From an uncultured Bdellovibrionales bacterium (GTDB taxonomy: Bacteria; Bdellovibrionota_G; JALEGL01; JAGRMV01), in contig CAZCBX010000001.1 of the NCBI GenBank assembly GCA_964497185.1, positions 5,333 through 69,332 of the forward strand: a DNA stretch of 64,000 bases, read 5' to 3'. Under the pieces are notes generated by a model that did no database searches, was not told where the DNA came from, and worked only from the letters and a program-made list of their open reading frames with translations. The position numbers and the translations under genes were made by a program. Positions within the stretch are counted from its first letter, which is position 1, and every line of letters starts with the position of its first letter. Shown piece by piece: positions 2,250 through 61,079 of the stretch.

Positions 2250-2493
2250 GGGTGACCTCTTTGCTGGTGGCTAAAATTTTTATCAACAACCCCTATATAT
2301 TACATAAAGCTTTTATAAAATAGTAGTTGTAGTAGGGCGTGTGCATAACCCAAACACTTCCCTAAAGACGAATCCAGACAGTGGTTTCGTTTAAAATCGT
2401 CTTGTGTATAACTAGTGGTTTACCCACCGAAGATCAAGGGAAAAAAGCCAAGTTTTTTTGATTCAAACCCACATGTTTGCATGAAAAGCGAGT

Positions 2494-2502
2494 TTATCCA
2501 CA
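2494..2502. promoter_or_regulatory. DnaA box (TTATCCACA, perfect) in the dnaN-dnaA intergenic region
   Basis: Exact match to the 9-mer DnaA box consensus read directly from the sequence. Confidence 0.6.
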
Positions 2503-2583
2503 ATGGCCTGTGGACGCATGAAAAAACGCAGTCCATGGTTGGCTGACATGCCTTGAAAAATTGCAAAAAGGATAAGAAAAAAA

Positions 2584-43151: not shown

Positions 43152-44567
43152 ATGAATTCAATATTGCGATACTTAATGTGGGGTGTTGGTGCGATTGTGG
43201 TGCTGTACGCATTGTTTTTTATCGCCTTGGAGACGGTGGGGGATCATTACATTCAAAAAAACCTGACCCAAGCTGCGCAACAACCGTATCAATTCGACCT
43301 CTCCATTGGCACCATAAGCCACTCTTTCTTTAAGCCCACACGGACCAAGATCAAAAATGCAGCATTGACGTATCAAAAAAACAAAGTCGTTGAAATCGAG
43401 CGCATGAAAATTGATTTGAGTGTCTTGGCGTTGATGAAACAAAAACTAAAAATCACCACTTTTGATTTCAAAGTCGCATCCTTGACCTTGAAGCCATCCT
43501 TGCTGGATCATGTTCAACAAGTGCAACCACCCGCTGACAAAGCGACATCCAAACCAGCATTGCCATTGGGCATCAACCGCTTGGAGTTGGTAGACAGCAA
43601 GGTGGAAGTGGACAAAGCCACTTATCAAAAAATGGCGTTGTCATCCTTGGTGCTTGAAACAAAAGATCTGAAAGTTGCATCCATAACTTCCCTTCTGTCC
43701 ACGCTATCGTGGAAAGCCACCATGCAGTTTCAACAATGGTCCCATCCCTACGTCGCCCTTGAAAATTGTGACATGCATATCAAACTGCAAAGTCAAACAA
43801 TGGACATCCAAAACATCCAATGCAAAGCCGAGGGCCAAAACCTTCAAGCGCAAACCACGTTTCAACTCTCACCCCTGAGCGACATTCACTTAAAGCTTCA
43901 ATACGATCAAATCGATCTAAAAAAATGGTCCAGCCAAGTGGCGCCAGAGCTGGGCTATCCCATATCAGGCCAGCTCAACCTACACACGGATGTACGCGTA
44001 GCGGACCTCCAACAGTGGCAACAAGCGCAAGGTCAAGTGCGGGTTGAAGGGCAAAACATTGTAATTGAAAACATCAACATCGACCGGTTGATTGATGCCT
44101 ATGTGCAAAGCAATCAGACCAGTTTGCTCAACGTGGCTGGTTTTATGGCACTGGGCCCCGTCGGCATTTTGGCCACGCAGTCGGCTAAGCTGGGCAAAAA
44201 CATGCCGGGCCTTATGCAGGGGCAAACCAAAATGGAAACGTTGCACGTGGAATTGGAAATTGCAGACCAATTGGCCAAGACCCAAGATGTTGCATTCAAG
44301 ACGGCCAAACATCGGGTGGCGGCCCAAGGCGCCATTGATCTCAAAGAACAAACCTACCAAAATTTTGAAATTGGATTTTTGGATGCCCAAGGCTGTGCCA
44401 AGCTGGTGCAAACCATCGAAGGCTCGCTGACCCAACCTTCGTTTCGCATCACGCGTTCATTGATCAAAACCATCACCGCCCCGGTGACCAACATGACAAA
44501 TAGAGTAGAAAACATGCTGACAGGTGGCTGTGAAAAATTTTACCAAGGCACCGTTGCACATCCTTGA
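43152..44567 (+). CDS. AsmA-family (outer-membrane biogenesis) protein; 3' ~300 bp belongs to the island-flanking direct repeat
   Basis: N-terminal TM anchor then long beta-rich domain, AsmA-like C-terminus; last 294 bp duplicated at 60783-61079. Confidence 0.5.
   Translation: MNSILRYLMWGVGAIVVLYALFFIALETVGDHYIQKNLTQAAQQPYQFDLSIGTISHSFFKPTRTKIKNAALTYQKNKVVEIERMKIDLSVLALMKQKLKITTFDFKVASLTLKPSLLDHVQQVQPPADKATSKPALPLGINRLELVDSKVEVDKATYQKMALSSLVLETKDLKVASITSLLSTLSWKATMQFQQWSHPYVALENCDMHIKLQSQTMDIQNIQCKAEGQNLQAQTTFQLSPLSDIHLKLQYDQIDLKKWSSQVAPELGYPISGQLNLHTDVRVADLQQWQQAQGQVRVEGQNIVIENINIDRLIDAYVQSNQTSLLNVAGFMALGPVGILATQSAKLGKNMPGLMQGQTKMETLHVELEIADQLAKTQDVAFKTAKHRVAAQGAIDLKEQTYQNFEIGFLDAQGCAKLVQTIEGSLTQPSFRITRSLIKTITAPVTNMTNRVENMLTGGCEKFYQGTVAHP
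44274..44567 (+). repeat. Direct repeat A (AsmA 3' end; left island junction)
   Basis: About 97% identical to 60783-61007 over the first ~225 bp; the last ~70 bp diverge, and the two copies differ in base composition there. Confidence 0.8.
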
Positions 44568-44582: not shown

Positions 44583-45956
44583 TTATTTCATCATTTGCAA
44601 ACGTTTCATACGTCGAATCAGAGAAGATCTCGAAATTCCTAACAAAGTGGAGGCTTTTTGTTTTTGCCCAAAAGCTTGATCCAGTGCTTTTTGAATGAGC
44701 TGTTTTTCATACGCGTCAAGGGCCTGCTCAAATTGATTCATTGGCTTGTTGGCAGTCGATGAAGCGGGGGATGTGTTTTCCAAAACATAGGCTGGAATAT
44801 CCTGTGACGTTAATTCGCGATGGTCGGATAACACCAACATGGCATCTATGACATTAAACAACTGTCGTGCATTGCCAGGCCAGTCCATGCTGGATAAGCG
44901 TGCTTTGGTTTCTGCATGGATGGTTTTGTTTTCTTGATTGTGCTCGGTTCGTTCAAGATAATAGTCTATTAAAAGCGGGATGTCCTCTCGGCGTTCACGC
45001 AGGGGCTCCAAATGAAGCTGCACTACCGATAAACGGTAATACAAATCTTCCCGAAAAGTGCCCTCTTGGATTTGGATGCGCAAATCTCGATTGGTTGCGG
45101 CAATGACCCGAAAATTGGACTGAATCATCTGATGGCCACCAACCCGCTCAAATTCTTTTTCTTGTAAGACCCGCAAAAGTTTGGACTGTAGATGCAAGGG
45201 CATCGAACCGATCTCATCCAGAAAAATATCTCCGCCGTTGGCCAATTCAAACTTTCCGATTTTTTGTCGATCGGCTCCCGTAAACGCACCCTTTTCATGG
45301 CCAAACATGATCGATTCCATAAGCTCAGATGGGATGGCTGCACAATTAAGTGCTACGAAGGGCCGTGAATTTTTTTTATGCATGGAGTGAATATATCGAG
45401 ACAGCACCTCTTTGCCTGTCCCGCTTTCACCAATGATCAATACATTCACTTCTGCGTTGGCTACTTTTTGACTGACGAGGCGAAGTTTTTGCACATTTTC
45501 AGATCGACCAATGTATTCTTTGGCCACAGGCTCTGAAGACGAATCATAAATTGGATCATCAAATTGCCAAGCGATTTTACGAATGGATTTTTCAACCGTC
45601 TTATGAAGGTCATCTTTTTCAAATGGTTTGGTGATGTAATCCACGGCGCCAATCTTAAGTGCTTTGGCAATGGATTGCGAGTCGCGATCTCCAGTGAGCA
45701 TCAAATATTGGACATGTTTTCGCTTTCGCTTAAGTTCAGACAAAAGTGCAATGCCGTCGTCCTGATCCAAATGAACATCCAGAATCACCAAATCAGGATG
45801 ATTTTTTTGAAATATTTGTTTTGCCTCATCTCCAGTTTGGGCAGTCCATAAATCGTATCGCTCAGAAAGCTCTAATTTCAATGAGGCGAGAATACCGGGA
45901 TCATCATCGACACAAAGAATAGAAGGCTTGGTACGCATGTTATTTTTCCCTTTCAT
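44583..45956 (-). CDS. Sigma-54-dependent response regulator (NtrC/LuxO-like bacterial enhancer-binding protein)
   Basis: Receiver domain; AAA+ sigma-54 activator domain with GAFTGA (EKGAFTGA); C-terminal Fis-type HTH. Confidence 0.88.
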   Translation of the reverse strand: MKGKNNMRTKPSILCVDDDPGILASLKLELSERYDLWTAQTGDEAKQIFQKNHPDLVILDVHLDQDDGIALLSELKRKRKHVQYLMLTGDRDSQSIAKALKIGAVDYITKPFEKDDLHKTVEKSIRKIAWQFDDPIYDSSSEPVAKEYIGRSENVQKLRLVSQKVANAEVNVLIIGESGTGKEVLSRYIHSMHKKNSRPFVALNCAAIPSELMESIMFGHEKGAFTGADRQKIGKFELANGGDIFLDEIGSMPLHLQSKLLRVLQEKEFERVGGHQMIQSNFRVIAATNRDLRIQIQEGTFREDLYYRLSVVQLHLEPLRERREDIPLLIDYYLERTEHNQENKTIHAETKARLSSMDWPGNARQLFNVIDAMLVLSDHRELTSQDIPAYVLENTSPASSTANKPMNQFEQALDAYEKQLIQKALDQAFGQKQKASTLLGISRSSLIRRMKRLQMMK

Positions 45957-46137
45957 CCATTTGGTCCACCAACGCTTCCAAACGATCCAACGCCTGACCC
46001 GTGAACTCGTAAAAATCCTTCATAAAAGCTTCATCTTCTTTTTTGCTCGGAAGATGCCGCATAAAAGTACGAAGGGTTGTCAGTGGTTGCCGAAGATCAT
46101 GTTGAAGATTTGAAAAAGCCATTGTAGAAGTCTCCAA
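45940..46137 (-). CDS. 65-aa standalone H-box (HisKA/DHp-like) protein, candidate phosphotransfer component
   Basis: NLQHDLRQPLTTL matches the histidine-kinase H-box consensus (hELRTPL); 17-nt overlap with the sigma-54 regulator start suggests translational coupling. Confidence 0.4.
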   Translation of the reverse strand: METSTMAFSNLQHDLRQPLTTLRTFMRHLPSKKEDEAFMKDFYEFTGQALDRLEALVDQMDEREK

Positions 46138-46220
46138 TGCGTATTAGCACAAGCCATGCCATATTTTTACACCACTGGGTGGTCCATAACACACCCATTT
46201 GAATCAATACAGTACACACC

Positions 46221-46235
46221 GTTCGATATCCGAAC
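46221..46235. promoter_or_regulatory. Palindromic operator candidate GTTCGATATCCGAAC in the divergent promoter region
   Basis: Perfect inverted repeat GTTCG-N5-CGAAC about 65 bp upstream of the receiver gene; related copy at 53062-53076. Confidence 0.4.
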
Positions 46236-46300
46236 ATCAATCATGGTCTGCACAAAGATAAACTTGCCATATAACGCCTAACAATAGTATAAAAAAATCA

Positions 46301-46651
46301 ATGAGCCATACGCATTCACTCAAACAAATCTTGGTTCTCATTGATGATGACCCACTGATTCACGCCACATGGTCCATGGTGGCTCAAGCAAAAGGCCATC
46401 AACTTCAATGCTTCACGTGCATTGAAGACTTTAATCAGGCAAGTATCCCCCTGGACGTGCCTGTCTATGTTGATTACCACTTGGGAGAAAAATCGGGCGC
46501 CGACATCATCAAACGCTTGGCTCAAAGAGGGTACGATCATTTATACATCACCACCGGTCGAAAACCCACTGACATCATCAAAGAACCTGAAATGAAAGGA
46601 GTATTTGGCAAAGACTATCCAGAGCAAATTCCTCATTCCAGCTCTTTTTGA
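46301..46651 (+). CDS. Single-domain response regulator (CheY-like receiver only)
   Basis: 116 aa; acidic pocket IDDD; phospho-acceptor in VYVDYHL; conserved Thr (YITTG) and Lys. Confidence 0.75.
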   Translation: MSHTHSLKQILVLIDDDPLIHATWSMVAQAKGHQLQCFTCIEDFNQASIPLDVPVYVDYHLGEKSGADIIKRLAQRGYDHLYITTGRKPTDIIKEPEMKGVFGKDYPEQIPHSSSF

Positions 46652-46677
46652 TAAAAATCGGATGAATACTACACCAA

Positions 46678-48453
46678 CTAAACAATCGGAATTTGCTGAG
46701 CTAAACTTTTAGGCAATATTTTTAATTCAGTTTTCATGGCCAAATCCAGAAGACTTTCGTCCGCATAATGACTCGAAACCAATATAGAATGGTTTTCTAA
46801 GACATTTCGGTGAATGATTTCTTGCCCGTTCACGGGGCTGCCCAGCAGCTCGTAATCAACAAGAAATAAATAGCCCGTTAGCGAAGGCAACACAGAAATC
46901 CAATTTTCAAAAGAAGTAGAATCATAAAAATGGTGCAATTTGATATGATGGCTGATTTTAAAGTTTTGGAGTCGGTTTTTCCAAACTTGGTGAATGGAAG
47001 AGTCGTCATCAAGAATAATGACATTGGTTATTTGATTCAACGCGATAGAAGAGGGAAACCATGCAGGCGTCCGGGTTAAAGGAAAAATCATTTCTACTTC
47101 CGTACCGCGCCCAGGAGTGCTGGTGATTTCAATGGAGGCACTTGCTTTGTGTAAGTTTTTAAAAGCATGATACAAACCCAGTCCTTTGCCAGAAATTTTT
47201 CTATAGCTAATTCTGTCTCTGCCAAGTTTTTCTAAAACATCAGAAGGAATGCCAACACCATTGTCAGTAATTTTTACACTTGCATGATGGTCTTTTTTGG
47301 TCAAAGATATTTCTACACGCCCCTTAGACGGGATAGACTCAATGGCATTGGATAAAATATTTGAAAAAACTCTTTTCAACTCAACACTGCTAAATTTTAC
47401 AAAAGTATCAAAGGAGTGATCGGAAACAATAAAATCAATGGTAACTTTATCAATTTCTTGATGCTGAATTCTTTTTTCAGCCAGCACATGTTCGATTAAA
47501 ACGACAAGCAGTACAGGTTTTAAATTTTGATCGGTATATTCATCTTCGCTAATATTCGTCAGCGTACTTACAATGCCGTCAATTCGGTTGGTTGCTTCAC
47601 GGATAAGTAAACGATAGTTTTCTGGAATCTCATTTAAAGAGCCCGTAACCACCTTCAAAGCAGTCAGGGGTGATCTAATATCATGAACAACTTGATTGGC
47701 GACGGAGATCACACCTTCTTCTCTAGATTTTTTAGCCAATTTTGCTTGGGTTTCTTCTATCATTCGATTGTATGCATTAAATGCTAAGCTAAGAGTTTGA
47801 ATTTCGCCTACGCCCCGAACTTCTTCAATATTTTTTGCTCTTTTCATGACATCTTGGGTAAGTTTTCTGATAGGTCTTTCAAGATTTTCTATGATCAAAA
47901 GCATAATGCCACTAAAAATGAAAAATACGGAGGTAAAATAAAGCAAATATTTATAAAATTCCTGTTTGAATTCTTGTAAAAAGGAACGGCTTGAAATTTT
48001 TGCAACTATATTTCCCCATTCAGTGCTGTATCGATCTATCAGTTTTATGTTTAACTCAAATTGTCTGGTATTAAAGAAATAATCAATGAATGACCATGTA
48101 TCTGTCAAACCATGTTCACTTCCAACTAAAAATTCCTCTGCCCCGTAGTTGAGCTTTACGTATTGAAAAGATCCATTTTTTACAAGATAGTCCATTTTTC
48201 TTTGAACCGAAGCATATTTGCCCACTTGGAGGTCACTTAAAAAAGATTGTGAGTAGACATTTAGCCATTGGTTTTGATTTTCTACAAAAGTAGAAACGTG
48301 GTCACGAAATGTGGTGAAAGTAAATATTCCAAAAATAAAAAAAAGAGATAAAAAAATCGCTCCCAGCGTAATCATTAATTTTTGTCTAAACAGCATGGAC
48401 TTACTCATTAAAATAAACACTTTCCCACTCAGCCAGGTAACCTTTGATGCCAA
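46678..48453 (-). CDS. Hybrid sensor histidine kinase (HisKA + HATPase_c + C-terminal receiver-like domain)
   Basis: H-box VHDIRSPLTAL; G-boxes (ITDNGVGIP, GKGLGLY); C-terminal ILDDDSSIHQVW...LVDYEL receiver paralogous to the standalone receiver. Confidence 0.82.
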   Translation of the reverse strand: MASKVTWLSGKVFILMSKSMLFRQKLMITLGAIFLSLFFIFGIFTFTTFRDHVSTFVENQNQWLNVYSQSFLSDLQVGKYASVQRKMDYLVKNGSFQYVKLNYGAEEFLVGSEHGLTDTWSFIDYFFNTRQFELNIKLIDRYSTEWGNIVAKISSRSFLQEFKQEFYKYLLYFTSVFFIFSGIMLLIIENLERPIRKLTQDVMKRAKNIEEVRGVGEIQTLSLAFNAYNRMIEETQAKLAKKSREEGVISVANQVVHDIRSPLTALKVVTGSLNEIPENYRLLIREATNRIDGIVSTLTNISEDEYTDQNLKPVLLVVLIEHVLAEKRIQHQEIDKVTIDFIVSDHSFDTFVKFSSVELKRVFSNILSNAIESIPSKGRVEISLTKKDHHASVKITDNGVGIPSDVLEKLGRDRISYRKISGKGLGLYHAFKNLHKASASIEITSTPGRGTEVEMIFPLTRTPAWFPSSIALNQITNVIILDDDSSIHQVWKNRLQNFKISHHIKLHHFYDSTSFENWISVLPSLTGYLFLVDYELLGSPVNGQEIIHRNVLENHSILVSSHYADESLLDLAMKTELKILPKSLAQQIPIV

Positions 48454-49954
48454 TAAATTTGATATTTTTTAGATTTTTACTGGTGACGATCTTGGATTGA
48501 TTATGAACAATCGGGTAAGCCAAACTCTTTTTAATAAGGTAATGATCAATCGATGAATAAAGCCTAAATTTTTCCTCTATGGTATTGGATTTTTTTAGAT
48601 TTTCAAAATAAGTGTCTAAATCGTCGTGTTTTCCACCGATAAGATATTCATTTGAATCTTTGTAAAAATATTGCAAGGCGGACATGGGGTCTTCATTTTT
48701 AAAATAAAGTTTTTCAATCCAGACTGGAAGTTTTTGATTTTCATACAATTTGAATATTTCTGAAAAGGGAAGTACGACGGTTTCAACGCCGATTTCCAGC
48801 AAAGGCTTCCTAACAATGTCCAAAATGCAGTCCACCTGCTGATCATCAGCGATATGGAAGACCAAATTGTTAAATTTTTTATTTTTCACAACAGTTTGTA
48901 TATCCTCCTTATAACTCTGCGAAGAACCAATTAATCCTTTTGGAATAATCGAACTGGCTACGTTTTGATTCCCGTAGCAAACCTCTCGAATTTTATGAAT
49001 GGGAATGTTTGACAGTAAATATTTTCTGTACTCAACATTTTTTAATTCATCAAAATGATCTGAATTGATGATAATTGTTTCCGTACTGTATTCAGCAATC
49101 TCTTGATACGCAAAGTGGTCCAATTTTTCGATCTCAGAAAAATCGTCAATGCTATAAAAAATAAGATCCGCAACCTCACCAAGCTTGTACTTTTCTATGG
49201 CAACAGACTTTGCCTGCTGTGAAATAACAATGGTTTTGATTTTGGGTGCGTCGCCATAGTAATACTGATTTCTAGAAAGCTTGATCTCACCTTTTTTTGT
49301 TTCCACGACTGCATAAGGACCAGAAGAAACCGGGTATGAAAAATACGCCTCTTTTGCCATGTCACTAAAATTGTGTGGATAAATACAAAACCGCGGAAGG
49401 GAAAGGTTCATCATAAATTGATCGTAAGAATGAATAAGCTCAATATCAAGTGTCCGGTTGTCAACAATGCGGATACCATTTATGAATGGATTTTTTTCTT
49501 CTCTATACTCTTTTGCACCCAAAATTTGTGTTAACACGCTGCTATCCAGAGCATCTTTGTCGACCCATTGATGGAAAGAGAAGGCAATATCTTTGGCATT
49601 GATTTTTTCGCCATTAGAAAACCGAACTTCATCACGAAGATGCAATCGATAAATTTTTTTATCGGTATCAAATTCCCATGATTTCAACAAATCAGGCTTA
49701 ATGCCAAATGAATCATCCACCTTCACCAAATGGCTATAGATTGGATACAGTAGAGCTTTTTGAATAGAATCAGGGACTTTTTGTGGATTGAGGTTGTCAG
49801 GACGGACCGGAACCAAAATATTCCATACTTTGCTTTGGCTTGAAATTCTTTTTTGGTTAATTCTAGATAATTTTCCGAGAGAAAACGAATAAACCAAAAT
49901 TAAAATTCCAGTAAAAATGAGTATGAATGGCGCATATTTTTTCGGCATAATCAT
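48401..49954 (-). CDS. Periplasmic solute-binding protein, family 5 (Opp/Dpp-like), encoded without an ABC permease or ATPase
   Basis: 517 aa with signal/anchor; SBP_bac_5-like sequence; 53-nt overlap with the downstream kinase gene. Confidence 0.68.
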   Translation of the reverse strand: MIMPKKYAPFILIFTGILILVYSFSLGKLSRINQKRISSQSKVWNILVPVRPDNLNPQKVPDSIQKALLYPIYSHLVKVDDSFGIKPDLLKSWEFDTDKKIYRLHLRDEVRFSNGEKINAKDIAFSFHQWVDKDALDSSVLTQILGAKEYREEKNPFINGIRIVDNRTLDIELIHSYDQFMMNLSLPRFCIYPHNFSDMAKEAYFSYPVSSGPYAVVETKKGEIKLSRNQYYYGDAPKIKTIVISQQAKSVAIEKYKLGEVADLIFYSIDDFSEIEKLDHFAYQEIAEYSTETIIINSDHFDELKNVEYRKYLLSNIPIHKIREVCYGNQNVASSIIPKGLIGSSQSYKEDIQTVVKNKKFNNLVFHIADDQQVDCILDIVRKPLLEIGVETVVLPFSEIFKLYENQKLPVWIEKLYFKNEDPMSALQYFYKDSNEYLIGGKHDDLDTYFENLKKSNTIEEKFRLYSSIDHYLIKKSLAYPIVHNQSKIVTSKNLKNIKFIGIKGYLAEWESVYFNE

Positions 49955-49956
49955 AT

Positions 49957-51816
49957 TTATAGTTTGTTTTCAAACATGATTCCAAAATTCATTGATTCTG
50001 GATCATCATAATAATCTTTGAGTAATCCCAAATCAGTTGCGCCTGAGCTTGTGGCGGCACGGTAGCCATATTCATTGTATTTGGATATTTTTAAACCAGA
50101 ATGATACTGATCGATGGAAATCCCAAGCTCATGCCAATAGGCAAAGTTAGGGATTCGTATTCCATAAAAAATAGATTTAATGGCCTCTTCTTTATAAAAG
50201 ATCTTTGCAGCACGAATAATTTCAACTGCTGTCCCTATGGGCGCGTCTGGTAAGACAGAAATGGAAACAATGTATCTAGAATCAAAGTTGGACAAGGTTT
50301 TTTTAGCATAATCAATGCATGCATAATGATGCCACTTATGTTTTTTCATGGCTTGACTTTGATTGCATGGTACTGAATAGATAAAACCCACTGGTTTTCC
50401 TTTATTTCGGCTATAAGCGATCAGAAAATTATCAGGCTTTATTTTTAGTCTTTCTCGAATGGTTTCTTTGCTGGCGGCATGTTTTTTGAGCCATGATCCA
50501 TCTTCAATGTTGGATAAAATATCTACATCGCTTTCAAGAGCTTGAAATACAGCAATTTGATCTTTGGTGCGTGTAGTTGTTTTAGAAATGTATTTTTGAA
50601 CAGAAAAAGAAAAATCATCCAATTTTTGATTGAAAGACGAAATTCTTTGGGCAATCCTGGGTTGCTCATTGGATTCATTGGTCCATAAAACTTCTTTGTT
50701 CCCAACCAGCAAGGTGAGTTGATTTTGCTGCGCTTTTTCTAAGTCCAAATCAAAAACTCTTCCTTCATATGGATTGGTTAAAAACTCCCCCGTCCACCGA
50801 CCGTTTAATTCTATATCACCATCTTTCAAGGGTTTGCCAAGGGCCGTGTGGATAAGAAGCTCACCTATGTTCTCGTTTATTAAAGTTCGATTGATAAGCT
50901 CAGGCATATAGTCACCGGCTATTCGTGCATTGACTTCAATGAGAACAGGCATTTCATTGACCAGCTTAAATTCAATATGTGTCCAAGAGTTTTGTATTTT
51001 TAATGTTGTGTGACATGCCTGCGCGAAATTTTGGATGGCCTCCAAAATTTTCTCATTTTGAATATTGGTTGGAAAAGTATCGGATAATTCATTGGTGCAG
51101 TGAGTTTTTTTATCCGTAATACCAATGACGTGCGTTTTTCCATTGAGCACCATAGACTCTACACTGTACTCGTTGCCATAGATGATCTCTTCAACGACAA
51201 TGTCTTGAGTAATGTTACCATAAATTTTTCGTAAATTCTCCTCATGAAAATCAATGGTTCTTAATTCTTGTATAGCACCAAACAGTTCTTTTTCATTGTT
51301 GATGATTTGAACGCCAAGGCTGGCCATCATTTGTGCAGGTTTGATGATGAATGGAAACGCTAAATTTTTTTCCTTTAATTCATCATAAGTCGGACTTGCA
51401 TCTGAAAAGTAATAAAAATTTGGATTATAATGTGAAAAGGAACTTTGAATTTTCTCTCGCACTAAGCCTTTGTGTCGATAACTTGCTTGCGGGTCTTGAC
51501 TAATTGAAGGCAATTGAAGATCCATTTGCAGTTGATTGCAAAATCCCACGGAGGTCTCAACCCAACACAACGCCCCACAGATTTTCAACTGATATTTGGA
51601 AGCATATTGTTTGGTTTGCTGGGTTAAGTCATGGTGGCTTTGATAATCAAATACAAAGCCTTTAATAGAATATTTTTCTTCCAACCAGGAATAGTCCATA
51701 AAGGCAAGACCCTGAGCGTAAATAAAATGATAATCGGTGTTTTGCTTTAGTTGTTCCACCAAGTAAGCTTTGGAAGATTGAAAACCAGGTTCGACAATGA
51801 TGATTGTTTCTTTCAT
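49957..51816 (-). CDS. ATP-grasp ligase fused to a ~220-aa C-terminal domain of unknown function
   Basis: 619 aa; N-terminal ~400 aa ATP-grasp fold (carboxylate-amine ligase-like); extra C-terminal domain. Confidence 0.6.
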   Translation of the reverse strand: MKETIIIVEPGFQSSKAYLVEQLKQNTDYHFIYAQGLAFMDYSWLEEKYSIKGFVFDYQSHHDLTQQTKQYASKYQLKICGALCWVETSVGFCNQLQMDLQLPSISQDPQASYRHKGLVREKIQSSFSHYNPNFYYFSDASPTYDELKEKNLAFPFIIKPAQMMASLGVQIINNEKELFGAIQELRTIDFHEENLRKIYGNITQDIVVEEIIYGNEYSVESMVLNGKTHVIGITDKKTHCTNELSDTFPTNIQNEKILEAIQNFAQACHTTLKIQNSWTHIEFKLVNEMPVLIEVNARIAGDYMPELINRTLINENIGELLIHTALGKPLKDGDIELNGRWTGEFLTNPYEGRVFDLDLEKAQQNQLTLLVGNKEVLWTNESNEQPRIAQRISSFNQKLDDFSFSVQKYISKTTTRTKDQIAVFQALESDVDILSNIEDGSWLKKHAASKETIRERLKIKPDNFLIAYSRNKGKPVGFIYSVPCNQSQAMKKHKWHHYACIDYAKKTLSNFDSRYIVSISVLPDAPIGTAVEIIRAAKIFYKEEAIKSIFYGIRIPNFAYWHELGISIDQYHSGLKISKYNEYGYRAATSSGATDLGLLKDYYDDPESMNFGIMFENKL

Positions 51817-51827
51817 TGATTCTCCGT

Positions 51828-52991
51828 TTAAAAAAAAGAATGGGGCCAGTTTGTAATCATGTTTTCAATAAAATTGGAAAGGGCTGGCATTGTCCAGAAT
51901 CCAATGTGAACTGAAGCAATATAAGGCCCAACCAAACAAATAAAAGCATCAAAAGCCAAAATGCGGTTGATGTAAGGTCCACTTAACTTTTTATAGGAAA
52001 ATAAATAATGGTCAATATTGGGCAGTTGATATGCTTCACAAACACTCCACACCACAAAAAATGGAATCCCAAGCCAGAAATTAGAAATGAGCAGCATGAT
52101 CGTGCAGAAAAAAGCAATTAAGCTAATAACATCATAGCGGCGCAAGGAAAATTCCAAAATTTTTGTCTTTATGGAAATAAGTTGAATCAAAATGACAGCA
52201 ATGGGGTTAAAACCCAATATTATTGCACTATACTTTGCTTCTAAATTGATGGCACTGGCTTTGATGGGTATGGCAGAAATCATAATGGCATAAGGAAGTA
52301 CAAACCCCAAAAAGCGTAAAACATCTTGCAAGACGTTGTGGATCGAAGCAATGCTTTCAACTTCTAAGTGGTTTGATTCCACTTGCTTGGTTTCTTTAGC
52401 AGAATCAAATGTGAATGGCTGATCCAGCCACCGCAAGATTTTCGAGGATATAACGGCGCCAGCGCTCCCTAGTAAAAAAACAACAAGAGTCGGAAAGGAC
52501 GCTTCCAACAGAAAAGCACCAACAAGCGGAAAAACAAGAAAAGCCAGATTGGTGGTGATGCCAAATAAAATGTATAAATTACCTTTTCCCTTGTAAAAAT
52601 TTACAAACTCACCCAGCAGATAACGACTTTTTTTGTAATAAATGGCCTGGGACAAACCAAAAGAAATAAAACTCACAATTTGCAATATCGGGACAGGTAC
52701 GAAAATAAGACAAAGGGCAGCCATTCTGGTGCAAAGCATCAAAGCAATGTGGGTTGTCCATTTTTCTCCGAAAAAGGAAATCAACCACACGCCCCCCACC
52801 TGCAGCCCAGCAAAAAGCCCCATGCCCAAGATGATGGCAGAGCGCAGCTTTGTTTCTTCAATGGGTAGATGCAAAAAAAGCGCATTCACGCCAATGTAGG
52901 CATAAGACCCAAAGAAGAAAAAATTCGAAAGGCCCAGAAGCCCAAGTTTTGAAAACAGTCTATTCATGAATAATGATTGCCTATAGAGCAT
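51828..52991 (-). CDS. Polytopic membrane protein (10-12 TM), possibly a transporter
   Basis: Hydrophobic helices throughout; start adjusted to ATG (MLYRQSL). Confidence 0.5.
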   Translation of the reverse strand: MLYRQSLFMNRLFSKLGLLGLSNFFFFGSYAYIGVNALFLHLPIEETKLRSAIILGMGLFAGLQVGGVWLISFFGEKWTTHIALMLCTRMAALCLIFVPVPILQIVSFISFGLSQAIYYKKSRYLLGEFVNFYKGKGNLYILFGITTNLAFLVFPLVGAFLLEASFPTLVVFLLGSAGAVISSKILRWLDQPFTFDSAKETKQVESNHLEVESIASIHNVLQDVLRFLGFVLPYAIMISAIPIKASAINLEAKYSAIILGFNPIAVILIQLISIKTKILEFSLRRYDVISLIAFFCTIMLLISNFWLGIPFFVVWSVCEAYQLPNIDHYLFSYKKLSGPYINRILAFDAFICLVGPYIASVHIGFWTMPALSNFIENMITNWPHSFF

Positions 52992-53061
52992 AAACCATAC
53001 CAACTTTTTAAGTTCTAGCCACTGGATTAGCTTATTTTAAACCATGTATTTGATTGAAGAT

Positions 53062-53076
53062 GTTCGGTATCCGAAC
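53062..53076. promoter_or_regulatory. Palindromic operator candidate GTTCGGTATCCGAAC (second copy)
   Basis: Extended palindrome ATGTTCGG-TAT-CCGAACAT in the divergent intergenic region. Confidence 0.4.
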
Positions 53077-53141
53077 ATAATGTGCAGACCGCTGAGATAT
53101 ACGTTCGTCAATTGATGCCAAACAAGAGTATAAAAAGATCA

Positions 53142-53345
53142 ATGAGCCATACGCATTCACCCAAACAAATCCTAGCCCTCATTGATGATGACCCACTGAT
53201 TCACGCCACATGGTCCATGGTGGCTCAAGCAAAAGGCCATCAACTTCAATGCTTCTATTCGCTAGACAAGTTTTGCACTGCATATGTCCTCATTTATACA
53301 TATATTTTTGTTGGCTATCATTTAAATGACAGAAAAGGCACCTAA
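53142..53345 (+). pseudogene. Truncated duplicate of the single-domain response regulator 5' end
   Basis: First 38 codons (MSHTHSPKQILALIDDDPLIHATWSMVAQAKGHQLQCF) near-identical to 46301-46414 (~77 bp identical at DNA level), then unrelated sequence and early stop. Confidence 0.6.
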
Positions 53346-53744
53346 GTTATAAAAAAGTTGGCCAGAAGCGGTTTTTCTTCGCTCTTTATTACAACTGGAC
53401 ATGACAAAAGCACCATTCATTCTTTTTCCCCAGCGAGAGCTGTTTTTGGAAAAAATTATCCTTAGTTCATATGAGTGAATATGTTGTCAGCCCCAAGATA
53501 AATATTTCAGTTGCTATCACTAAATCGAACAAATGTGATTGGAATCCAAACAAATCATTAATTTCTTTCCCATGGGTTTTGGCGGGTTTTCAGTCATCTT
53601 TATCTTTATTTTTTTGATTAACAGAACCTATCTAAAATCTTATAGCGTTTGGAAATAGAACGAACTTGTTCTGTTTCCAAATTATTTTTGTAGAAATAAT
53701 GCATCCTTTCCAGGATACGGTACGGTTTTTTTTACTTTAACCGT

Positions 53745-53760
53745 TGGCATACTCATTGCT
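53745..53760 (+). promoter_or_regulatory. Candidate sigma-54 (-24/-12) promoter for the biosynthetic operon
   Basis: TGGCAT-actca-TTGCT with GG-N10-GC spacing; imperfect palindrome TTTGGAAATAGAAC-gaac-TTGTTCTGTTTCCAAA at 53650-53684 about 90 bp upstream could be an enhancer-binding-protein site. Confidence 0.4.
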
Positions 53761-53772
53761 CTATGCCTTCAC

Positions 53773-55059
53773 ATGAAAATAAAAAATGTTGTACAAAGAA
53801 ACTGGCAAAAAGAGAAAATTAAAAAATCATCATTTCACCAAAATCTTTCCTTTAGCTCTGGCATTAACAACAAAAATGTCACTTCAAGAAAAGAGAAATG
53901 GATCGAACTTGCAGATGGAACCAGCGCCACAGAATTCATGTCTTGCTCATACCTGGGATTAGAAACTGACAACCGCCTTAAGAATGCCGCACTAAGTGCT
54001 ATCGATCAATATGGTGTGCAACTTGCTGTAGCTAGAACCAGAATCAAACCAATCATTTGTGAAGAGCTTGAAGAAAATCTACAAACCATTTTTCAAGGCC
54101 CTACGGTTACGTTTAGTACTGTAGGTCTAACTCACCTTGCCATCTTCCCTCTTCTAGGGGCTGGTGTTTTACCGTCGTATCCAGTGAGTGTCAATGGGCC
54201 GCTTTGGATCATGGATAAGACATCTCATGCTTCCATTCAGATTTTACGGGGTATCATGCAACAAAATGGTGAAGTGATTCGGGTATCATTCTCTGACCAT
54301 CAGGCACTTGCAGATGCATTTCAGTATGCACATAAAAGCCAAAGAACGCCTATCTCCATATCTGATGGTGTTGGTTCTATGGGAGGAGATGCTCCGGTTC
54401 GACTTCTAGTAGAACTTTCTTACAAATACAATGGATATGCATACATTGACGATGCCCATGGCACGTCAATTATGGGTAAATACGGAGGGGGATATGTCAT
54501 TCACGAGCTAAATGACACTCTCGATCCAAGAGTGATACTGGTCTCATCACTTTCGAAGGCATTTGGAGCCACTGGAGGCTGTGTAACGGTCCGAAGTCCT
54601 AACGATAAGGACACCATTCAACGATTTGGAACACCATATATCTTTGGCGGGCCTGTTTCACTTCCCGGTATCGCTGCAGCCCTTGCATCATCTGAAATTC
54701 ATATACAAGATGAAATCTATACGCTGCAAAATAAACTACAAGAAAACATAAAGCACTTTGATACCTTGGCTGGCAATAAGACAATTAACTTCAAAAAACG
54801 CATTCCCATTCGTGGTCTTGTTGTGGGGGATGAGGTGAAGTGCCTTAGCGTTTCAAAACAAATGTGGGAAAGAGGTTTTGGAACGACCGCTGCTATGTAC
54901 CCGACGGTACAAAAAGGCGAAGCCATGCTCCGCGTAGCGCTTTCCGTCCTCCATACAAAAAAACAAATAGAAAACCTCATTTATACGTTTCAGCATGCAA
55001 GACAAGGTTTGCATATTGTCACAGACACTCTCAAGGGATCCTCCAATGTACACGTATAA
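53773..55059 (+). CDS. PLP-dependent alpha-oxoamine synthase (BioF/Kbl/SPT/CqsA/LqsA family)
   Basis: 428 aa; N-terminal SYLGLETD motif; PLP-lysine motif SLSKAFGATGG; no bioA/B/D genes nearby. Confidence 0.75.
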   Translation: MKIKNVVQRNWQKEKIKKSSFHQNLSFSSGINNKNVTSRKEKWIELADGTSATEFMSCSYLGLETDNRLKNAALSAIDQYGVQLAVARTRIKPIICEELEENLQTIFQGPTVTFSTVGLTHLAIFPLLGAGVLPSYPVSVNGPLWIMDKTSHASIQILRGIMQQNGEVIRVSFSDHQALADAFQYAHKSQRTPISISDGVGSMGGDAPVRLLVELSYKYNGYAYIDDAHGTSIMGKYGGGYVIHELNDTLDPRVILVSSLSKAFGATGGCVTVRSPNDKDTIQRFGTPYIFGGPVSLPGIAAALASSEIHIQDEIYTLQNKLQENIKHFDTLAGNKTINFKKRIPIRGLVVGDEVKCLSVSKQMWERGFGTTAAMYPTVQKGEAMLRVALSVLHTKKQIENLIYTFQHARQGLHIVTDTLKGSSNVHV

Positions 55060-55909
55060 ATGTAAGACCGGATCCTCATCAATCCTACCTAATGGTAATG
55101 ACGTGCGGGCAAAATTATCAAAACATGGAGCTGTACTCTTTCGGGGGTACCGAATCTGCGTGAAAAATTTTGATCAGTATACAAATCAATTTGGTAACGA
55201 ACACTTGATTCATGGATCTATAAGGAAAAAAATTAATGCCAAAGATACCATTCAAGATGTCACAAAAGGCCAGGGAAAAGTATTGCCCCATATAGAAATG
55301 GGAAGAATGCCTACAAAACCCAATCAAGTTTGGTTCTTGAGCGAAAAGCCGGCTCTTATCGGGGGCGAAAGTACACTCGTTGATGGTATCAAGGTTGCTG
55401 AAAGCCTACCTGATCATGTGCGTAATTTCTTTAGGGATAATCCTATTTCTTTTCAAGCAAAAGTTTCTAAATTCTCTTGGCAGAGACTTTGGGGTATCCA
55501 AACACTAAGCGAATTAAAAGATCGTATGGATATGCTTTCCGTAAATCCTAACATTTCATTTGAGATGAATAAAGAAGATGAATCATTTATTGGAAGATAC
55601 AGCACCAGCGCATTTATCACTCAACCTGATGGAAAATTAGCTTTTAGTAATAGTATCGTAGGACCTTATGAAGGCCCTAGTGGAGGAGAATGCAGAATGC
55701 TAAATGGCAATCCAATTCCATCATCAATAATCGAAACCATCTTGAATTGCTACCAATACAATATGAACACAATTACCATGGATCCCGGAGATTTTATGGT
55801 CGTTAACAATCATCGCTTTATGCATGGCAGAGAAGCGTTTCGAGTAAAACCAGGTGATACAAGAAAAATGTATGCAAAACTTATCAAAGGAGAATTTCAT
55901 GCAATCTAG
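55046..55909 (+). CDS. Fe(II)/2-oxoglutarate-dependent dioxygenase (TauD/TfdA / clavaminate-synthase-like)
   Basis: HxE-type motif (PHIEMG) and distal HRFMHGR; start adjusted to MYTYKCK, 14-nt overlap with the upstream gene. Confidence 0.58.
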   Translation: MYTYKCKTGSSSILPNGNDVRAKLSKHGAVLFRGYRICVKNFDQYTNQFGNEHLIHGSIRKKINAKDTIQDVTKGQGKVLPHIEMGRMPTKPNQVWFLSEKPALIGGESTLVDGIKVAESLPDHVRNFFRDNPISFQAKVSKFSWQRLWGIQTLSELKDRMDMLSVNPNISFEMNKEDESFIGRYSTSAFITQPDGKLAFSNSIVGPYEGPSGGECRMLNGNPIPSSIIETILNCYQYNMNTITMDPGDFMVVNNHRFMHGREAFRVKPGDTRKMYAKLIKGEFHAI

Positions 55910-56951
55910 TCTAAAAGTGAATCAAATGATTCAACACGATACAAAACCTACACTTCAAGACCGCTCATTGGTTCAAATTATTACTTCTTATAGAAGCGCC
56001 AGCGCTTTGTATGCTTTTGTGAAGCTCGACCTCCCTACATTCATTCACAACAATTCTTCACCAACACTGAAGAAAGCTGCTTTTTACTCTGGTGTTCCCA
56101 TCGAAAAACTATCTCGACTCATGGATGTCATTGCCATGGAACAAATCGTAGCGATCGAAAATTCTTGTTTACACCTAACAACCAAAGGCAAACAATTGGC
56201 TACAGATAAGAGCCTAAGAGACTGGATTTTATGCGAGCTTAGCCCTACCTATTGGAATGTCTGGGCCAACCTAACAGACGCCCTCCAACAAAACATAGAC
56301 TGTGCTTTCGACTCTACACACAACCAGTCCTTTTTTCCCTACCTAAAAGAGAATGAGAATTTTCATAAACTATTTCAAAGCGTCATGACAAATTACTCGA
56401 TTCGAGCAGGGGCAGAAGTCGCGAAAGCAATCAACTTTGAGGATGATAAAAAAATCGTAGATGTGGGTGGAGGCCACGGCCACATGCTTTTTAGCATCCT
56501 CAAAGCCAATCAACACCTTCATGGATGCGTATTCGAGCTGCATGAGAATTATAAAGGATTTCAGATTGAAAAACAAAAAACCGGGCTTCTTGATCAAAGA
56601 GCAACTTTCCAATCCGGCAATTTCATGCATGAAGCTATTCCAAGGTGTGACACAATCATCATGAAAAATATTATTCATGATTGGGACGATGAAAATGCCG
56701 TTCATATACTTTCAGCATGTAGACAATCCCTGAAAAACAACGGCCGTATCATCCTGGCGGAAATTTTGAAATCTGAGGATCCACTTGACTCTTTAGGTAA
56801 AAGTTTGGATCTGCTTATGATGCTGCTATTCAATGGGAAAGAGCGAAATTATTCGCAATATCAATCTTTGGCTGAACAATCAGGCCTAACCATCAGCAAC
56901 ATCTACCCAACTAGAGGACCGCTTTCGTTGATTGAACTGAGAAAGGCATGA
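55899..56951 (+). CDS. Class I SAM-dependent O-methyltransferase (dimerisation domain + Rossmann fold)
   Basis: SAM motif VDVGGGHGH; start MQSSLKV preceded by AAAGGAGAA; 11-nt overlap with the dioxygenase gene. Confidence 0.75.
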   Translation: MQSSLKVNQMIQHDTKPTLQDRSLVQIITSYRSASALYAFVKLDLPTFIHNNSSPTLKKAAFYSGVPIEKLSRLMDVIAMEQIVAIENSCLHLTTKGKQLATDKSLRDWILCELSPTYWNVWANLTDALQQNIDCAFDSTHNQSFFPYLKENENFHKLFQSVMTNYSIRAGAEVAKAINFEDDKKIVDVGGGHGHMLFSILKANQHLHGCVFELHENYKGFQIEKQKTGLLDQRATFQSGNFMHEAIPRCDTIIMKNIIHDWDDENAVHILSACRQSLKNNGRIILAEILKSEDPLDSLGKSLDLLMMLLFNGKERNYSQYQSLAEQSGLTISNIYPTRGPLSLIELRKA

Positions 56952-57910
56952 ATATGCGTTGCTATTGGGTAGTTTGTTACAAAGATTTTGACGAGCAAAC
57001 GAGAAAAAAAATTGAAAACAAGTACCACAAGATGTTTCAAGAAGCATCAGAAAAGCACGGAATATCATTTTCGTTCATCGATAGTGAGGATCTCTCCATA
57101 ACATGTGATCATAAAACGAATATATGCTTGGGTAATCAGAATATTGCAACCGAAGATACAGCGTTTTTGATTTCAAATTTTAGTATGGACCCAAAAAGAA
57201 AGCGATACTTAGATCAGCTTTATTATGCTTTCCTTGAAAGCGACAGTACACTCCTTAACAAAACATTCTATCATGGGGCGCACCTTGAGAAAAATAAGTT
57301 TTCTATGACGCAACTCATAACTCAGCTTGGAATACCTAATATACCTACACACTTCATGAAACCCTCAGGTGATCTAAAACACGCAGAATTATTTTATCAG
57401 AACCACTGCATTGATCATGGCGCAATGCTAAAACCCAATGAAATGGGCATGGGCATTGGTATTTCTCATTGCAAATCCTGGCAAGATACCAAAGATACCT
57501 GGCAGCGTGATGGAAAAGACGTTGATTATATTTTGCAGCCCTATATTCCGCATATAGGAGATCTAAGATTATACCTTTACAACCACAGTGTTGTTGAGGG
57601 TCAATTTCGCATTGTTCCGAATGGACGACATCAAGCCAATATCTCTCAGGGTGCAATGAGCAAAGATGTTGAGTTCCCACAAGCATTACGAACTTTAGCA
57701 AAAAATATAAGTAGACACGTCGGTGCTGAGCAGTGCTGCATTGATTGGCTCATCACAGAAAAATCATTTTTCTTTAACGAAATCACAACAACACTAGGTG
57801 GGTTCACTGGGCTAAAGGAGAGCAAGCAAAAAGTGCTTGCAGACAGACTATTTAATTACATCCAATACCGTATAACATCGAACAAAGAAAAGAGAAACGT
57901 ATGGCCCTAA
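56948..57910 (+). CDS. ATP-grasp family ligase (RimK/GshB-like)
   Basis: 320 aa; ATP-grasp C-terminal half (DYILQPYIPHIGDLRLYLY...EITTTLGGFTGL). Confidence 0.6.
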   Translation: MNMRCYWVVCYKDFDEQTRKKIENKYHKMFQEASEKHGISFSFIDSEDLSITCDHKTNICLGNQNIATEDTAFLISNFSMDPKRKRYLDQLYYAFLESDSTLLNKTFYHGAHLEKNKFSMTQLITQLGIPNIPTHFMKPSGDLKHAELFYQNHCIDHGAMLKPNEMGMGIGISHCKSWQDTKDTWQRDGKDVDYILQPYIPHIGDLRLYLYNHSVVEGQFRIVPNGRHQANISQGAMSKDVEFPQALRTLAKNISRHVGAEQCCIDWLITEKSFFFNEITTTLGGFTGLKESKQKVLADRLFNYIQYRITSNKEKRNVWP

Positions 57911-59208
57911 CCTTACTTGAAAATTCTTACCTCACGTCCATCAAAGACATCTATGCACTTCAACATCAAAATGCACTCGCAACAATCCAAAGGCTTTCAA
58001 AGATTGATGCATATAAAGACAAATTAATTGGAATTGATCAAAATAATTGGAAAAATGATTGGTTCAAGGTTCAACAAATGAAAGCTCTGGACGTTGAAGC
58101 AACGCAAAAACAAGATGAAGCAAGAACAGCAGGCCCAGTCCTTCGGTCAGGTGGAACTAGCAGTCTTCGTAAGGTTATTCATCATTCTTGGAGATTTAAT
58201 GACCAAGTTACTCACCTTGGTGTGCGTTCATTTCAGGCAATTACAAACAAGACGAATTTTCGCATTGCCAATTGTTATAGCAGTGGTGATATGTTGGGGG
58301 CTTATTTTTTTGCAGAATCTATCGCTAGAGAGTTACGTTTACCCTACTACCCGATTGGAAGCTCGGTTCCTCTTGAAGAGACCCTCAATATAATCTCAGA
58401 CCACAAGATTGATATACTTATGGCAACGCCATCATACGCACAAAGCCTGTATCATCATGCCTCTATCAGAAATCAAAAAGAAAAATTATCATCTATATCG
58501 ATCATTCTGTATTTAGGAGAGATGTTTCCAAAAACATTTTATGAAAAAATTTGTAGCCTTCACCCGAATGTTTGCATCCATAATTTATCCTATACAACGA
58601 CCGAAACGGGACCGATTGGATATCAATGCACCTCATTGCCAAATGATTGTTTTCACATTCATGAGGACGCGATTTGGGTTGAAGTTATTGAGCCAATCAC
58701 AAAGCAGCCTATTATGGATGTGCCAGGCAATATTATCGTAACCCCCTTTTCAAGCACAGGTATCCCACTTCTTCGATATGACACAGGTGATAAAGGAATA
58801 TTGCGGTCGGTATCATGTCAATGTGGGCACAAAACAAGAGTGATTCAACTATTGGGAAGAAGTCAACAATCCATTAAAATTTGCGGTGCCATTATACAAA
58901 AGAGTTATATTATCGACTCTATTAGAAGTATATGTAAAGAAGCTCTCGTTAATGAAACCAATATTCAAGTCCAACAAATTCAGAACCATGATGGCATTCA
59001 AGTCAAAATATTGCTCAATAAGAAAAATTGGACGTGTATTTCAGCCAGACGAATTGAGGATAGACTGAGACAAGATCATCACTTCTCGTTTATTGTATCT
59101 CACCCTGCTTGTAGGCTCTTTGGTGTTTCGTCGGTTCCCTTCACTGAGTTTGCAATGACAAAAAGCGGAAAAACACCGTTTTTTATTACGATCCATGAGA
59201 AGCAATAA
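57901..59208 (+). CDS. Adenylate-forming enzyme of the PaaK / coenzyme F390 synthetase-like family
   Basis: P-loop-like RSGGTSSLRKV where PaaK has SSGTTGKP; 435 aa. Confidence 0.6.
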   Translation: MALTLLENSYLTSIKDIYALQHQNALATIQRLSKIDAYKDKLIGIDQNNWKNDWFKVQQMKALDVEATQKQDEARTAGPVLRSGGTSSLRKVIHHSWRFNDQVTHLGVRSFQAITNKTNFRIANCYSSGDMLGAYFFAESIARELRLPYYPIGSSVPLEETLNIISDHKIDILMATPSYAQSLYHHASIRNQKEKLSSISIILYLGEMFPKTFYEKICSLHPNVCIHNLSYTTTETGPIGYQCTSLPNDCFHIHEDAIWVEVIEPITKQPIMDVPGNIIVTPFSSTGIPLLRYDTGDKGILRSVSCQCGHKTRVIQLLGRSQQSIKICGAIIQKSYIIDSIRSICKEALVNETNIQVQQIQNHDGIQVKILLNKKNWTCISARRIEDRLRQDHHFSFIVSHPACRLFGVSSVPFTEFAMTKSGKTPFFITIHEKQ

Positions 59209-60782: not shown

Positions 60783-61079
60783 TTGGCCAAGACCCAAGAT
60801 GTTGCATTCAAGACGGCCAAACATCGGGTGGCGGCCAAAGGCGCCATTGATCTCAAAGAACAAACCTACCAAAATTTTGAAATTGGATTTTTGGATGCCC
60901 AAGGCTGTGCCAAGCTGGTGCAAACCATCGAAGGCCCGCTGACCCAACCCTCGTTTCGCATCACGCGATCATTGATCAAAACCATCACCGCTCCGGTGAC
61001 CAACATGTCCGACCGCGTAGAAAACTTGCTGACCGGGGGCTGTGACGTTTTTTATCAGGGCACCGTTTCGCACCCCTAA
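60783..61079 (+). repeat. Direct repeat B: orphan AsmA 3' fragment (right island junction)
   Basis: Encodes ...LAKTQDVAFKTAKHRVAAKGAIDL...CDVFYQGTVSHP, near-identical to the C-terminus of the full AsmA gene but with no upstream coding context. Confidence 0.8.

Follow-up and report, generated by a model that had tools for sequence, protein, structure and literature searches.

We analysed a stretch of 64,000 nucleotides (nt) from an uncultured Bdellovibrionales bacterium (contig CAZCBX010000001.1), called the window below, in which a small gene for a receiver-type signalling protein and the control region in front of it occur twice, 6.8 kb apart. The two places are named site A and site B, and the receiver genes copy A and copy B. 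A repeat search of the window joins them by a direct repeat, 46221-46414 and 53062-53255, 194 nt long, ungapped, 84% identical and at an offset of 6841. The sequence-only reading, an earlier interpretation made from the letters of this stretch, had seen a shorter repeat here, reaching through the first 38 codons of the receiver gene and holding a fully identical core of ~77 bp. The repeat is borne out and is longer than had been claimed; alignment of the copies places codons 1-38 within it, and a bin-by-bin comparison gives 100% identity over 78 consecutive nt (46337-46414, equal to 53178-53255). A 139-nt tract within the repeat, 46276-46414 and 53117-53255, has 94.2% identity by BLAST, the copies differing at 8 positions, and the homology of the two sites reaches further left, to a conserved patch at 46147-46161 and 52988-53002. 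No third copy of the module or of the receiver gene was found in the window. The DNA around the repeat is a low-GC island (~38% GC against 47-50%).

Both copies, with their flanks and the same stop codon, are present in three independent metagenome assemblies (L003-L005), which carry 2-7 single-nucleotide polymorphisms (SNPs) relative to the window over 12-20 kb; the repeat sequence in them is identical to that of the window, and the SNPs lie elsewhere. An assembly error as the source of the duplicate, which the sequence-only reading had named as a risk, is ruled out, since the two copies recur in three independent assemblies, each with SNPs of its own. There are also 8 differences within the 139-nt tract, and the downstream continuations of the copies are entirely different; the probability left to an artefact is negligible. 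The receiver genes and the stretches shared between them are as follows.

46301-46651, plus strand: copy A, an intact gene for a divergent single-domain receiver of 116 amino acids (aa), recognised by signature residues, an AlphaFold model and CheY-like matches in the PDB.
53142-53465, plus strand: copy B, a full-length pseudogene paralog of 107 codons, in which codon 68 is TAA (53343-53345) and Asp58 is replaced by Gly.
46276-46414, plus strand: A-side part of the putative gene-conversion tract, with 94% identity over 139 nt and a 78-nt perfect core.
53117-53255, plus strand: putative gene-conversion tract, B side, in which the -10 region and the first 38 codons appear converted to the copy A sequence.

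Copy A, at 13.7 bits, stays below the gathering threshold of Pfam Response_reg, which is 30.2, and the profile of its family matches PDB receivers at E = 0.02. An alignment of 18 family members shows no variation at D15, D17, D58, and K104 and almost none at D16; copy A has the acidic pocket (DD), the conserved Lys and, where beta3 ends, the phospho-acceptor Asp. The AlphaFold model, predicted with a 2-sequence alignment as input, has a predicted local distance difference test score (pLDDT) of 75.6, and its strands and helices alternate in a (beta-alpha)5 fold; when it was searched against the PDB with Foldseek, the top 50 matches were all CheY-like receivers with TM 0.5-0.6. Copy A is thus a divergent receiver branch, recognised by its predicted fold and its signature residues and not by the curated Pfam model. 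As a called protein the family makes up two clusters among 5.8 billion proteins. A tblastn search found 27 further loci, eight of them from genome records, nearly all being Bdellovibrionota-type metagenome-assembled genomes, and at most of these loci the receiver domain is the C-terminal end of a large hybrid kinase homologous to the kinase of the window. At L001/2, L006, and L014-16, loci without the island, the receiver is free-standing and divergent from an operon of a 60-61-aa open reading frame and an NtrC-type sigma-54 regulator. Since this arrangement, the regulator and the small gene (orf60 in the window) reading left and the receiver reading right, is kept at these loci, copy A holds a conserved orthologous position.

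Copy B had been described as a truncated gene ending at codon 38, which is wrong: it is colinear with copy A in frame for 107 codons, with 56% aa identity and 0 gaps (E 4e-45), and its one interruption is an in-frame TAA at codon 68. At position 58 it has Gly where Asp is invariant in the 18 family members. Lacking both the phospho-acceptor and an open reading frame, copy B is a pseudogene. Its identity to copy A is a mosaic. Nucleotide identity is 95.6% over codons 1-38 and, without gaps, 47% over codons 39-107, where aa identity is 36%; the switch from 96% to 47% is abrupt at 46414/53255, and the synonymous sites inside the tract are identical as well. The 3' part of copy B is closest to copy A (36%) and next to L001 (30%). 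With a pseudogene as one of the partners, purifying selection does not explain 78 identical bases, and the pattern fits the recent gene conversion that the sequence-only reading had offered as one of two explanations. We read it as one recent conversion tract or as two nested ones (139 nt at 94% and the 78-nt perfect core). The other explanation, a promoter/operator cassette copied to the second locus, is not supported: at site B the divergent control region as a whole is an old paralog of that at site A, nearly saturated with differences in most of its upstream DNA and in two thirds of its coding sequence, and similarity is left only in the conversion tract and in the patches that look functional.

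The conversion likely ran from A to B, because the GC content of the shared tract (42-45%) resembles that of the 3' part of copy A (44.7%) rather than the island-like 3' part of copy B (35.2%), and because copy A has the orthologous context; the homolog searches returned no outgroup with an unconverted copy B. As the tract carries the promoter -10 region, the dead copy B probably stays transcribed. RNA structure does not seem to be the cause of the 78-nt core, the sense strand being unremarkable (z -0.3 and -1.1). The core also holds an imperfect inverted repeat, and its antisense fold (46337-46414, minus strand) reaches -29.7 kcal/mol with z -3.1; as an explanation of the core this fold was set aside, its pairing being made of codons and not conserved in L001.

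Outside the conversion tract, the similarity of the two sites comes down to a palindrome and a block resembling a sigma-54 promoter. These, with the predicted receiver promoter and the genes at site A, are listed here.

46219-46238, no strand assigned: palindrome A, the proposed activator site (upstream activating sequence, UAS), with the core GTTCGATATCCGAAC at 46221-46235.
53060-53078, no strand assigned: palindrome B, ATGTTCGGTATCCGAACAT, a perfect 8-3-8 dyad, ATGTTCGG-TAT-CCGAACAT.
46146-46161, minus strand: sigma-54 -24/-12 element A, TGGCATGGCTTGTGCT, 9/11 consensus positions, conserved upstream of orf60 in L001, L006, and L015/16.
52987-53002, minus strand: sigma-54 -24/-12-like element B, TGGTATGGTTTATGCT, 8/11 consensus positions, in exact register with element A.
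46264-46293, plus strand: inferred sigma-70-like promoter of copy A, TTGCCA, an 18-nt spacer and TATAAA, as read from the sequence.
45940-46122, minus strand: orf60, a free-standing 60-aa HisKA/DHp protein with the H-box HDLRQPL, first gene of the regulator operon.
44583-45956, minus strand: an NtrC-type sigma-54 enhancer-binding response regulator of 457 aa, with receiver, AAA+, and Fis-type helix-turn-helix (HTH) domains.

That a related palindrome precedes each receiver copy was confirmed, and within the window the palindrome is unique to these two sites: GTTCGNTATCCGAAC, allowing ≤2 mismatches, has only two matches in 64 kb, where 0.17 are expected by chance, and 0/100 shuffles reached 2. 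The dyad is laid out as GTTCG-N5-CGAAC, its half-sites 10 bp apart, i.e., one helical turn. The spacing between palindrome and sigma-54 element, ~68 bp, is equal at the two sites, which puts the dyad centre at about -93 from the predicted leftward sigma-54 start at both sites. The sigma-54 consensus used was TGGCAC-N5-TTGCW, with -24 GG and -12 GC at 10-nt spacing. Element A lies 25 nt before the orf60 ATG (46122), with a predicted start at ~46135, 13 nt before that ATG; element B lies 21 nt before the ATG of an MFS-like gene (52967), with a predicted start at ~52976, 9 nt before the ATG. When the two sites are compared, identity outside the conversion tract is confined to the palindrome (17/20 in its bin) and to the 15-nt -24/-12 block, which reads on the minus strand TGGCATGGCTTGTGC at site A (46147-46161) and TGGTATGGTTTATGC at site B (52988-53002), 12/15 being identical; the bins flanking these two patches have 3-10 of 20 positions identical, and the surrounding DNA has 20-50% identity, 25-45% next to the -24/-12 block.

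The comparison between species picks out the same two blocks. In a six-sequence alignment with the orthologous loci the only invariant runs are AGCA, which falls in the sigma-54 element, and CGAAC. TGGCA-N-GTGC is kept upstream of orf60 in L001, L006, and L015/16, and each of these has two CGAAC(A) sites 49-96 bp beyond the sigma-54 element. CGAAC/GTTCG is enriched over dinucleotide shuffles in 5/6 regions (P = 0.007 at site A; at site B 0/5000 shuffles reach the observed count). The proposal that the shared palindrome links the regulation of the two loci is therefore plausible in one part, given that it is unique in the window and that its CGAAC half is invariant in the orthologs of other species; the part that needs correcting is the direction, as the promoters most plausibly served are the leftward sigma-54 elements before the orf60/regulator operon and the MFS-like operon, and not those of the receiver genes. 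No sigma-54 promoter with the correct GG-N10-GC spacing was found on the plus strand between the palindromes and the receiver genes. A side match should be mentioned here: CGAACAAATGT occurs at 53526-53536, past the end of copy B and before the hairpin at 53647-53682, and resembles CGAACATAATGT of palindrome B and the L001 sites; CGAACA-N2-4-TGT has only two matches in the window, this one and CGAACATAATGT.

The receiver genes themselves seemingly have promoters of another type. The -10 of copy A ends 7 nt before the ATG, so its mRNA is predicted to be leaderless or to have a very short leader, and the orthologs have semi-conserved CTTGnnnT and TTATAA blocks, with 6-8 nt between them and the ATG of the receiver. 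A scan with the strict sigma-70 consensus gave nothing convincing at site A and, at site B, only a match overlapping palindrome B; the receiver promoter is accordingly proposed from the semi-conserved blocks.

The regulator encoded beside site A has the parts expected of a sigma-54 activator. Pfam gives Sigma54_activat (7e-70), Response_reg (3e-26), and HTH_8; GAFTGA is found at residues 223-228, and the Walker A and B motifs are present as GESGTGKE and IFLDE. The protein matches the LuxO and NtrC models in a generic way, and its orthologs in L001, L006, and L015 (53-60% identity) adjoin orf60 and the receiver gene. The product of orf60 is a HisKA protein (Pfam 30.3 bits, above the 26.9 cut-off), a bare DHp-type hairpin with no ATPase domain. 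Its H-box HDL[KR]QPLT is invariant in four orf60 orthologs of 60-61 aa (L001, L006, L014, and L015), and the end of orf60 overlaps or abuts the start of the regulator gene. The orf60 product could be a minimal histidine phosphotransfer protein. A resemblance of its N-terminus to that of the MFS-like protein (MAFSNLQ and MNRLFSKLG) was rejected as homology, being too short, with the remaining sequence unrelated.

The element B operon and the genes to the right of site B complete the locus.

48401-52967, minus strand: upstream genes of the leftward operon, namely the MFS-like membrane protein (51828-52967), a 619-aa ATP-grasp ligase (49957-51816), and a family-5 solute-binding protein (48401-49954), followed by the kinase.
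46678-48453, minus strand: a hybrid histidine kinase of 591 aa, with HisKA and HATPase_c (Pfam) and a probable, divergent C-terminal receiver.
53647-53682, plus strand: an inverted repeat with a 16-bp stem and a T-rich tract, between the pseudogene and promoter 3, fold -19.9 kcal/mol, z -5.9.
53745-53760, plus strand: predicted sigma-54 promoter 3, TGGCATACTCATTGCT, with 0 mismatches to the searched pattern and 10/11 consensus positions.
53773-60414, plus strand: a biosynthetic operon of a BioF/Kbl-type acyltransferase dependent on pyridoxal phosphate, a TauD-type dioxygenase, an O-methyltransferase, a RimK-type ATP-grasp protein, a PaaK-like ligase, and an MFS exporter.

The C-terminal 130 aa of the kinase match the receiver-family profile in hhalign (83%, E 9e-6), with no sequence match in Pfam or the PDB. 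The cassette of ATP-grasp ligase, solute-binding protein, and kinase is also found in L033, a locus with no divergent receiver, sigma-54 element, or palindrome. The L033 kinase (1953-4139, 728 aa) has a copy-A-type receiver fused at its C-terminus, and the kinase of the window ends just before that domain. No intact B-type gene and no second copy of the island were found; for the MFS-like protein the search gave a single distant relative, at 39% identity in L033.

Promoter 3, separated by 13 nt from the ATG at which the biosynthetic operon begins, is the best sigma-54 match of the region and one of 3 sites at 10/11 in the window. Palindrome B is ~600 bp away from this operon, with the pseudogene and the strong hairpin between. 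As the operon has a predicted sigma-54 promoter of its own, at 53745-53760, direct control from the palindrome region, as had been suggested earlier, is not supported. The three sigma-54-like elements are all in the right orientation, 13-36 nt upstream of three operon starts, with intergenic regions of ~650 bp in all. The hairpin, whose centre is at about -106 from the predicted start of promoter 3, could be a terminator of the copy B transcript, a second activator site, or both. It was also considered as a second copy of the palindrome; its GAAC and GTTC halves stand in the opposite (everted) order, and it is therefore a different site. No credible match to known structured RNAs was found with Rfam in 43-62 kb.

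Taken together, we give a probability of roughly 60% to the following reading. Site A and site B would be paralogous copies of one divergent control region. In both, a leftward sigma-54 promoter stands leftmost and is followed at ~68 bp by the dyad, then by a sigma-70-type promoter, and last by a small receiver gene with little or no leader. A dyad at about -93 and half-sites 10 bp apart are the geometry of a UAS, and on these grounds we assign the palindrome to the adjacent regulator: most likely it is the UAS of the NtrC-type protein encoded beside site A, binding being inferred. At site A the regulator would switch on the operon that encodes it (orf60 and the regulator gene), a positive autoregulation, and at site B the operon of the MFS-like protein, ATP-grasp ligase, solute-binding protein, and hybrid kinase; the biosynthetic operon, via its own sigma-54 promoter, probably belongs to the same regulon. 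Copy A, the working receiver, is probably an intermediate, and the natural reading of the gene content is a phosphorelay that may run from the kinase to the receiver, then to the His of orf60, and finally to the regulator. Copy B is the dead paralog, and a recent conversion, probably from copy A, would have replaced its -10 region and its first 38 codons, the two direct repeats lying 6.8 kb from each other. That A and B are nearly identical there would, as part of this one joint reading, be a by-product of recombination and not a designed cassette.

Several points weigh against it. The CGAAC sites of the orthologs are direct repeats 21 or 47 bp apart and form no clean palindrome; being direct and not inverted, they indicate that the binding geometry is not conserved. 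Element B taken alone is weak (8/11, with ATGC at -12), and there are 72 comparable sites in the window. The generic sigma-54 pattern occurs window-wide at chance density, 16 observed against 15 expected, and in view of this the sigma-54 argument is one of position, register, and conservation. The distantly related cassette of L033 has neither a sigma-54 element nor CGAAC upstream, rpoN is not within the window, and the direction of the conversion is read from GC content alone.

One more of these points, that the dyad lies ~73 bp upstream of both receiver starts in exact register, also allows the dyad to control the rightward promoter, besides or in place of the leftward one, and speaks for a different assignment, in which the palindrome is the operator of some other protein, not encoded here, that controls the rightward sigma-70-type receiver promoters, the sigma-54-like element of site B being incidental. 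The semi-conserved -35-like and -10-like receiver blocks of the orthologs and the weakness of element B taken alone fit this as well. We nevertheless consider it unlikely, as the -24/-12 element of site A is conserved in four orthologous loci at 49-96 bp from CGAAC, the classic enhancer distance, a dyad at -73 clears the -35/-10 region, unlike the usual repressor operator, and the very operon that starts at the site A promoter includes the gene of an enhancer-binding protein with an HTH. It may also be asked whether site B has any current function, for its receiver gene is dead, conversion demonstrably acts between the loci, and its sigma-54 element has drifted (TGGTAT...ATGC); the conserved patches would then be leftover ancestry or patchy conversion around a dead gene, and site A alone would work. 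The patches are, however, separated from each other and from the tract by DNA of 20-50% identity, the pattern of selection on short sites, and they match exactly the only blocks conserved between species. Palindrome B is moreover the more perfect dyad (8-3-8) of the two, and a four-gene leftward operon needs a promoter, for which element B, 21 nt from its ATG, is in place. A site B without function is thus quite unlikely.

A further possibility concerns recombination. Direct repeats of 139-194 nt flank a discrete gene set of 6.8 kb, and a 293-nt direct repeat brackets a larger segment of 16.5 kb, so that recombination has shaped the locus; the modules might then be recombination sites or cassette boundaries of the 6.8-kb sensory segment, at which it had been inserted or undergoes excision or amplification, with the palindromes as recombinase core sites. 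This is very improbable given that neither the segment nor its neighbourhood holds a gene for a recombinase, integrase, or transposase and there is no tRNA, the 3-5-nt spacer of the dyads is unlike tyrosine-recombinase core sites, CGAAC sites also occur in orthologous loci without the island, and all three assemblies have a single identical arrangement.

Modules of NtrC-type enhancer and sigma-54 promoter with autoregulation are well known, e.g., glnAp2/glnALG in enteric bacteria, and NifA has the UAS TGT-N10-ACA. The window resembles them in the -24 GG/-12 GC promoter, in a dyad about one helical turn wide and ~90-100 bp upstream of the predicted start, and in an activator gene (receiver, AAA+ with GAFTGA, and Fis-type HTH) within the operon that it apparently controls. 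It differs in that the CGAAC half-site is not known to be that of any activator, the ortholog sites are direct repeats, the site is common to a divergent sigma-70-type receiver promoter, and the binding of the activator is a prediction. Multi-step phosphorelays ending in a transcription factor include Spo0F-Spo0B-Spo0A and LuxPQ/LuxN-LuxU-LuxO, the final regulator of the latter being also sigma-54 dependent. CckA-ChpT-CtrA (ChpT: PMC3433190) and PhyT (PMC5898713) are of the same kind. Shared with these are a hybrid kinase, with a probable receiver of its own, beside a periplasmic binding protein, the single-domain receiver of copy A, and a small His-containing protein in an operon with the final sigma-54-dependent response regulator. 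In contrast to LuxU, orf60 is a bare 60-aa HisKA hairpin and not a four-helix HPt; unlike Spo0B and ChpT, it does not have the architecture of DHp plus pseudo-ATPase; and the copy A receiver, different from those of the known phosphorelays, is too divergent for the Pfam threshold. As for gene conversion between nearby paralogs, the sharp identity boundaries, the synonymous identity, the direct repeats a few kb apart, and the one dead partner are all as generally seen. What differs is that the sequence seems to have passed from the live gene to the pseudogene, and compared with antigenic-variation loci there is no sign of a variation system.

The lineage is unstudied, the architecture of a known kind (an enhancer with a sigma-54 promoter, an activator under its own control, and conversion between paralogs), and the finding is one of ordinary genome evolution, a dead paralog held partly identical to the live copy via gene conversion. 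Its use is that the comparison of the paralogs is a built-in phylogenetic footprint, which singles out one candidate enhancer site along with three predicted sigma-54 promoters; through these the sensor operon, the regulator operon, and the biosynthetic cluster would form a single regulon that can be tested. Of most interest for further work is the triad conserved in Bdellovibrionota, i.e., the divergent receiver, the 60-aa HisKA-only protein, and the sigma-54 regulator, which would be, if confirmed, an unusually minimal phosphorelay.

A more far-reaching idea, which we regard as a long shot, is that the 16.5-kb segment is a self-contained circuit of signal production and sensing that moved as a unit into a genome of the predatory type (Bdellovibrionota), with a positive feedback resembling quorum sensing. 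The biosynthetic operon would make a small molecule, the MFS pump would export it, and the solute-binding protein and hybrid kinase would sense it; the signal would then pass via the divergent receiver and the 60-aa HisKA-only protein to the LuxO-like sigma-54 regulator, which would turn on its own, the sensor, and the biosynthetic operons from CGAAC-type enhancer sites. If true, such a loop would rest on a new, previously undescribed type of His-carrier. Two side observations concern the biosynthetic operon: its BioF/Kbl-type acyltransferase has a weak similarity (9e-13) to CqsA-type autoinducer synthases, and the operon adjoins the sensor pair of solute-binding protein and kinase.

The borders of the island and of the larger segment left some traces. 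Copy A ends in a 9-aa extension, EQIPHSSSF, that is missing from all its relatives, and is convergent with the kinase gene of the window, 27 bp apart; the extension suggests that the left junction of the island lies at the very end of copy A. Among 5.8 billion proteins, neither the AsmA-like protein (43152-44567), nor copy A, nor the MFS-like protein has a relative above 50% identity, themselves excepted; the source lineage is essentially unsampled, and every relative of the triad comes from a Bdellovibrionota metagenome-assembled genome. An empty insertion site was sought via AsmA homologs, and this search returned only the AsmA-like protein itself. The 293-nt direct repeat (92%) belongs to the 3' end of the asmA-like gene, 44271-44563 and 60783-61075, and the 16.5-kb segment that it brackets runs from the regulator to the MFS exporter. 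It is a mosaic as well, with ~98% identity over 225 nt and then ~70%, the left copy ending AT-rich and the right one GC-rich. Such a mosaic repeat around 16.5 kb suggests that the triad of regulator, orf60, and receiver may have entered together with the island, by recombination anchored in asmA.

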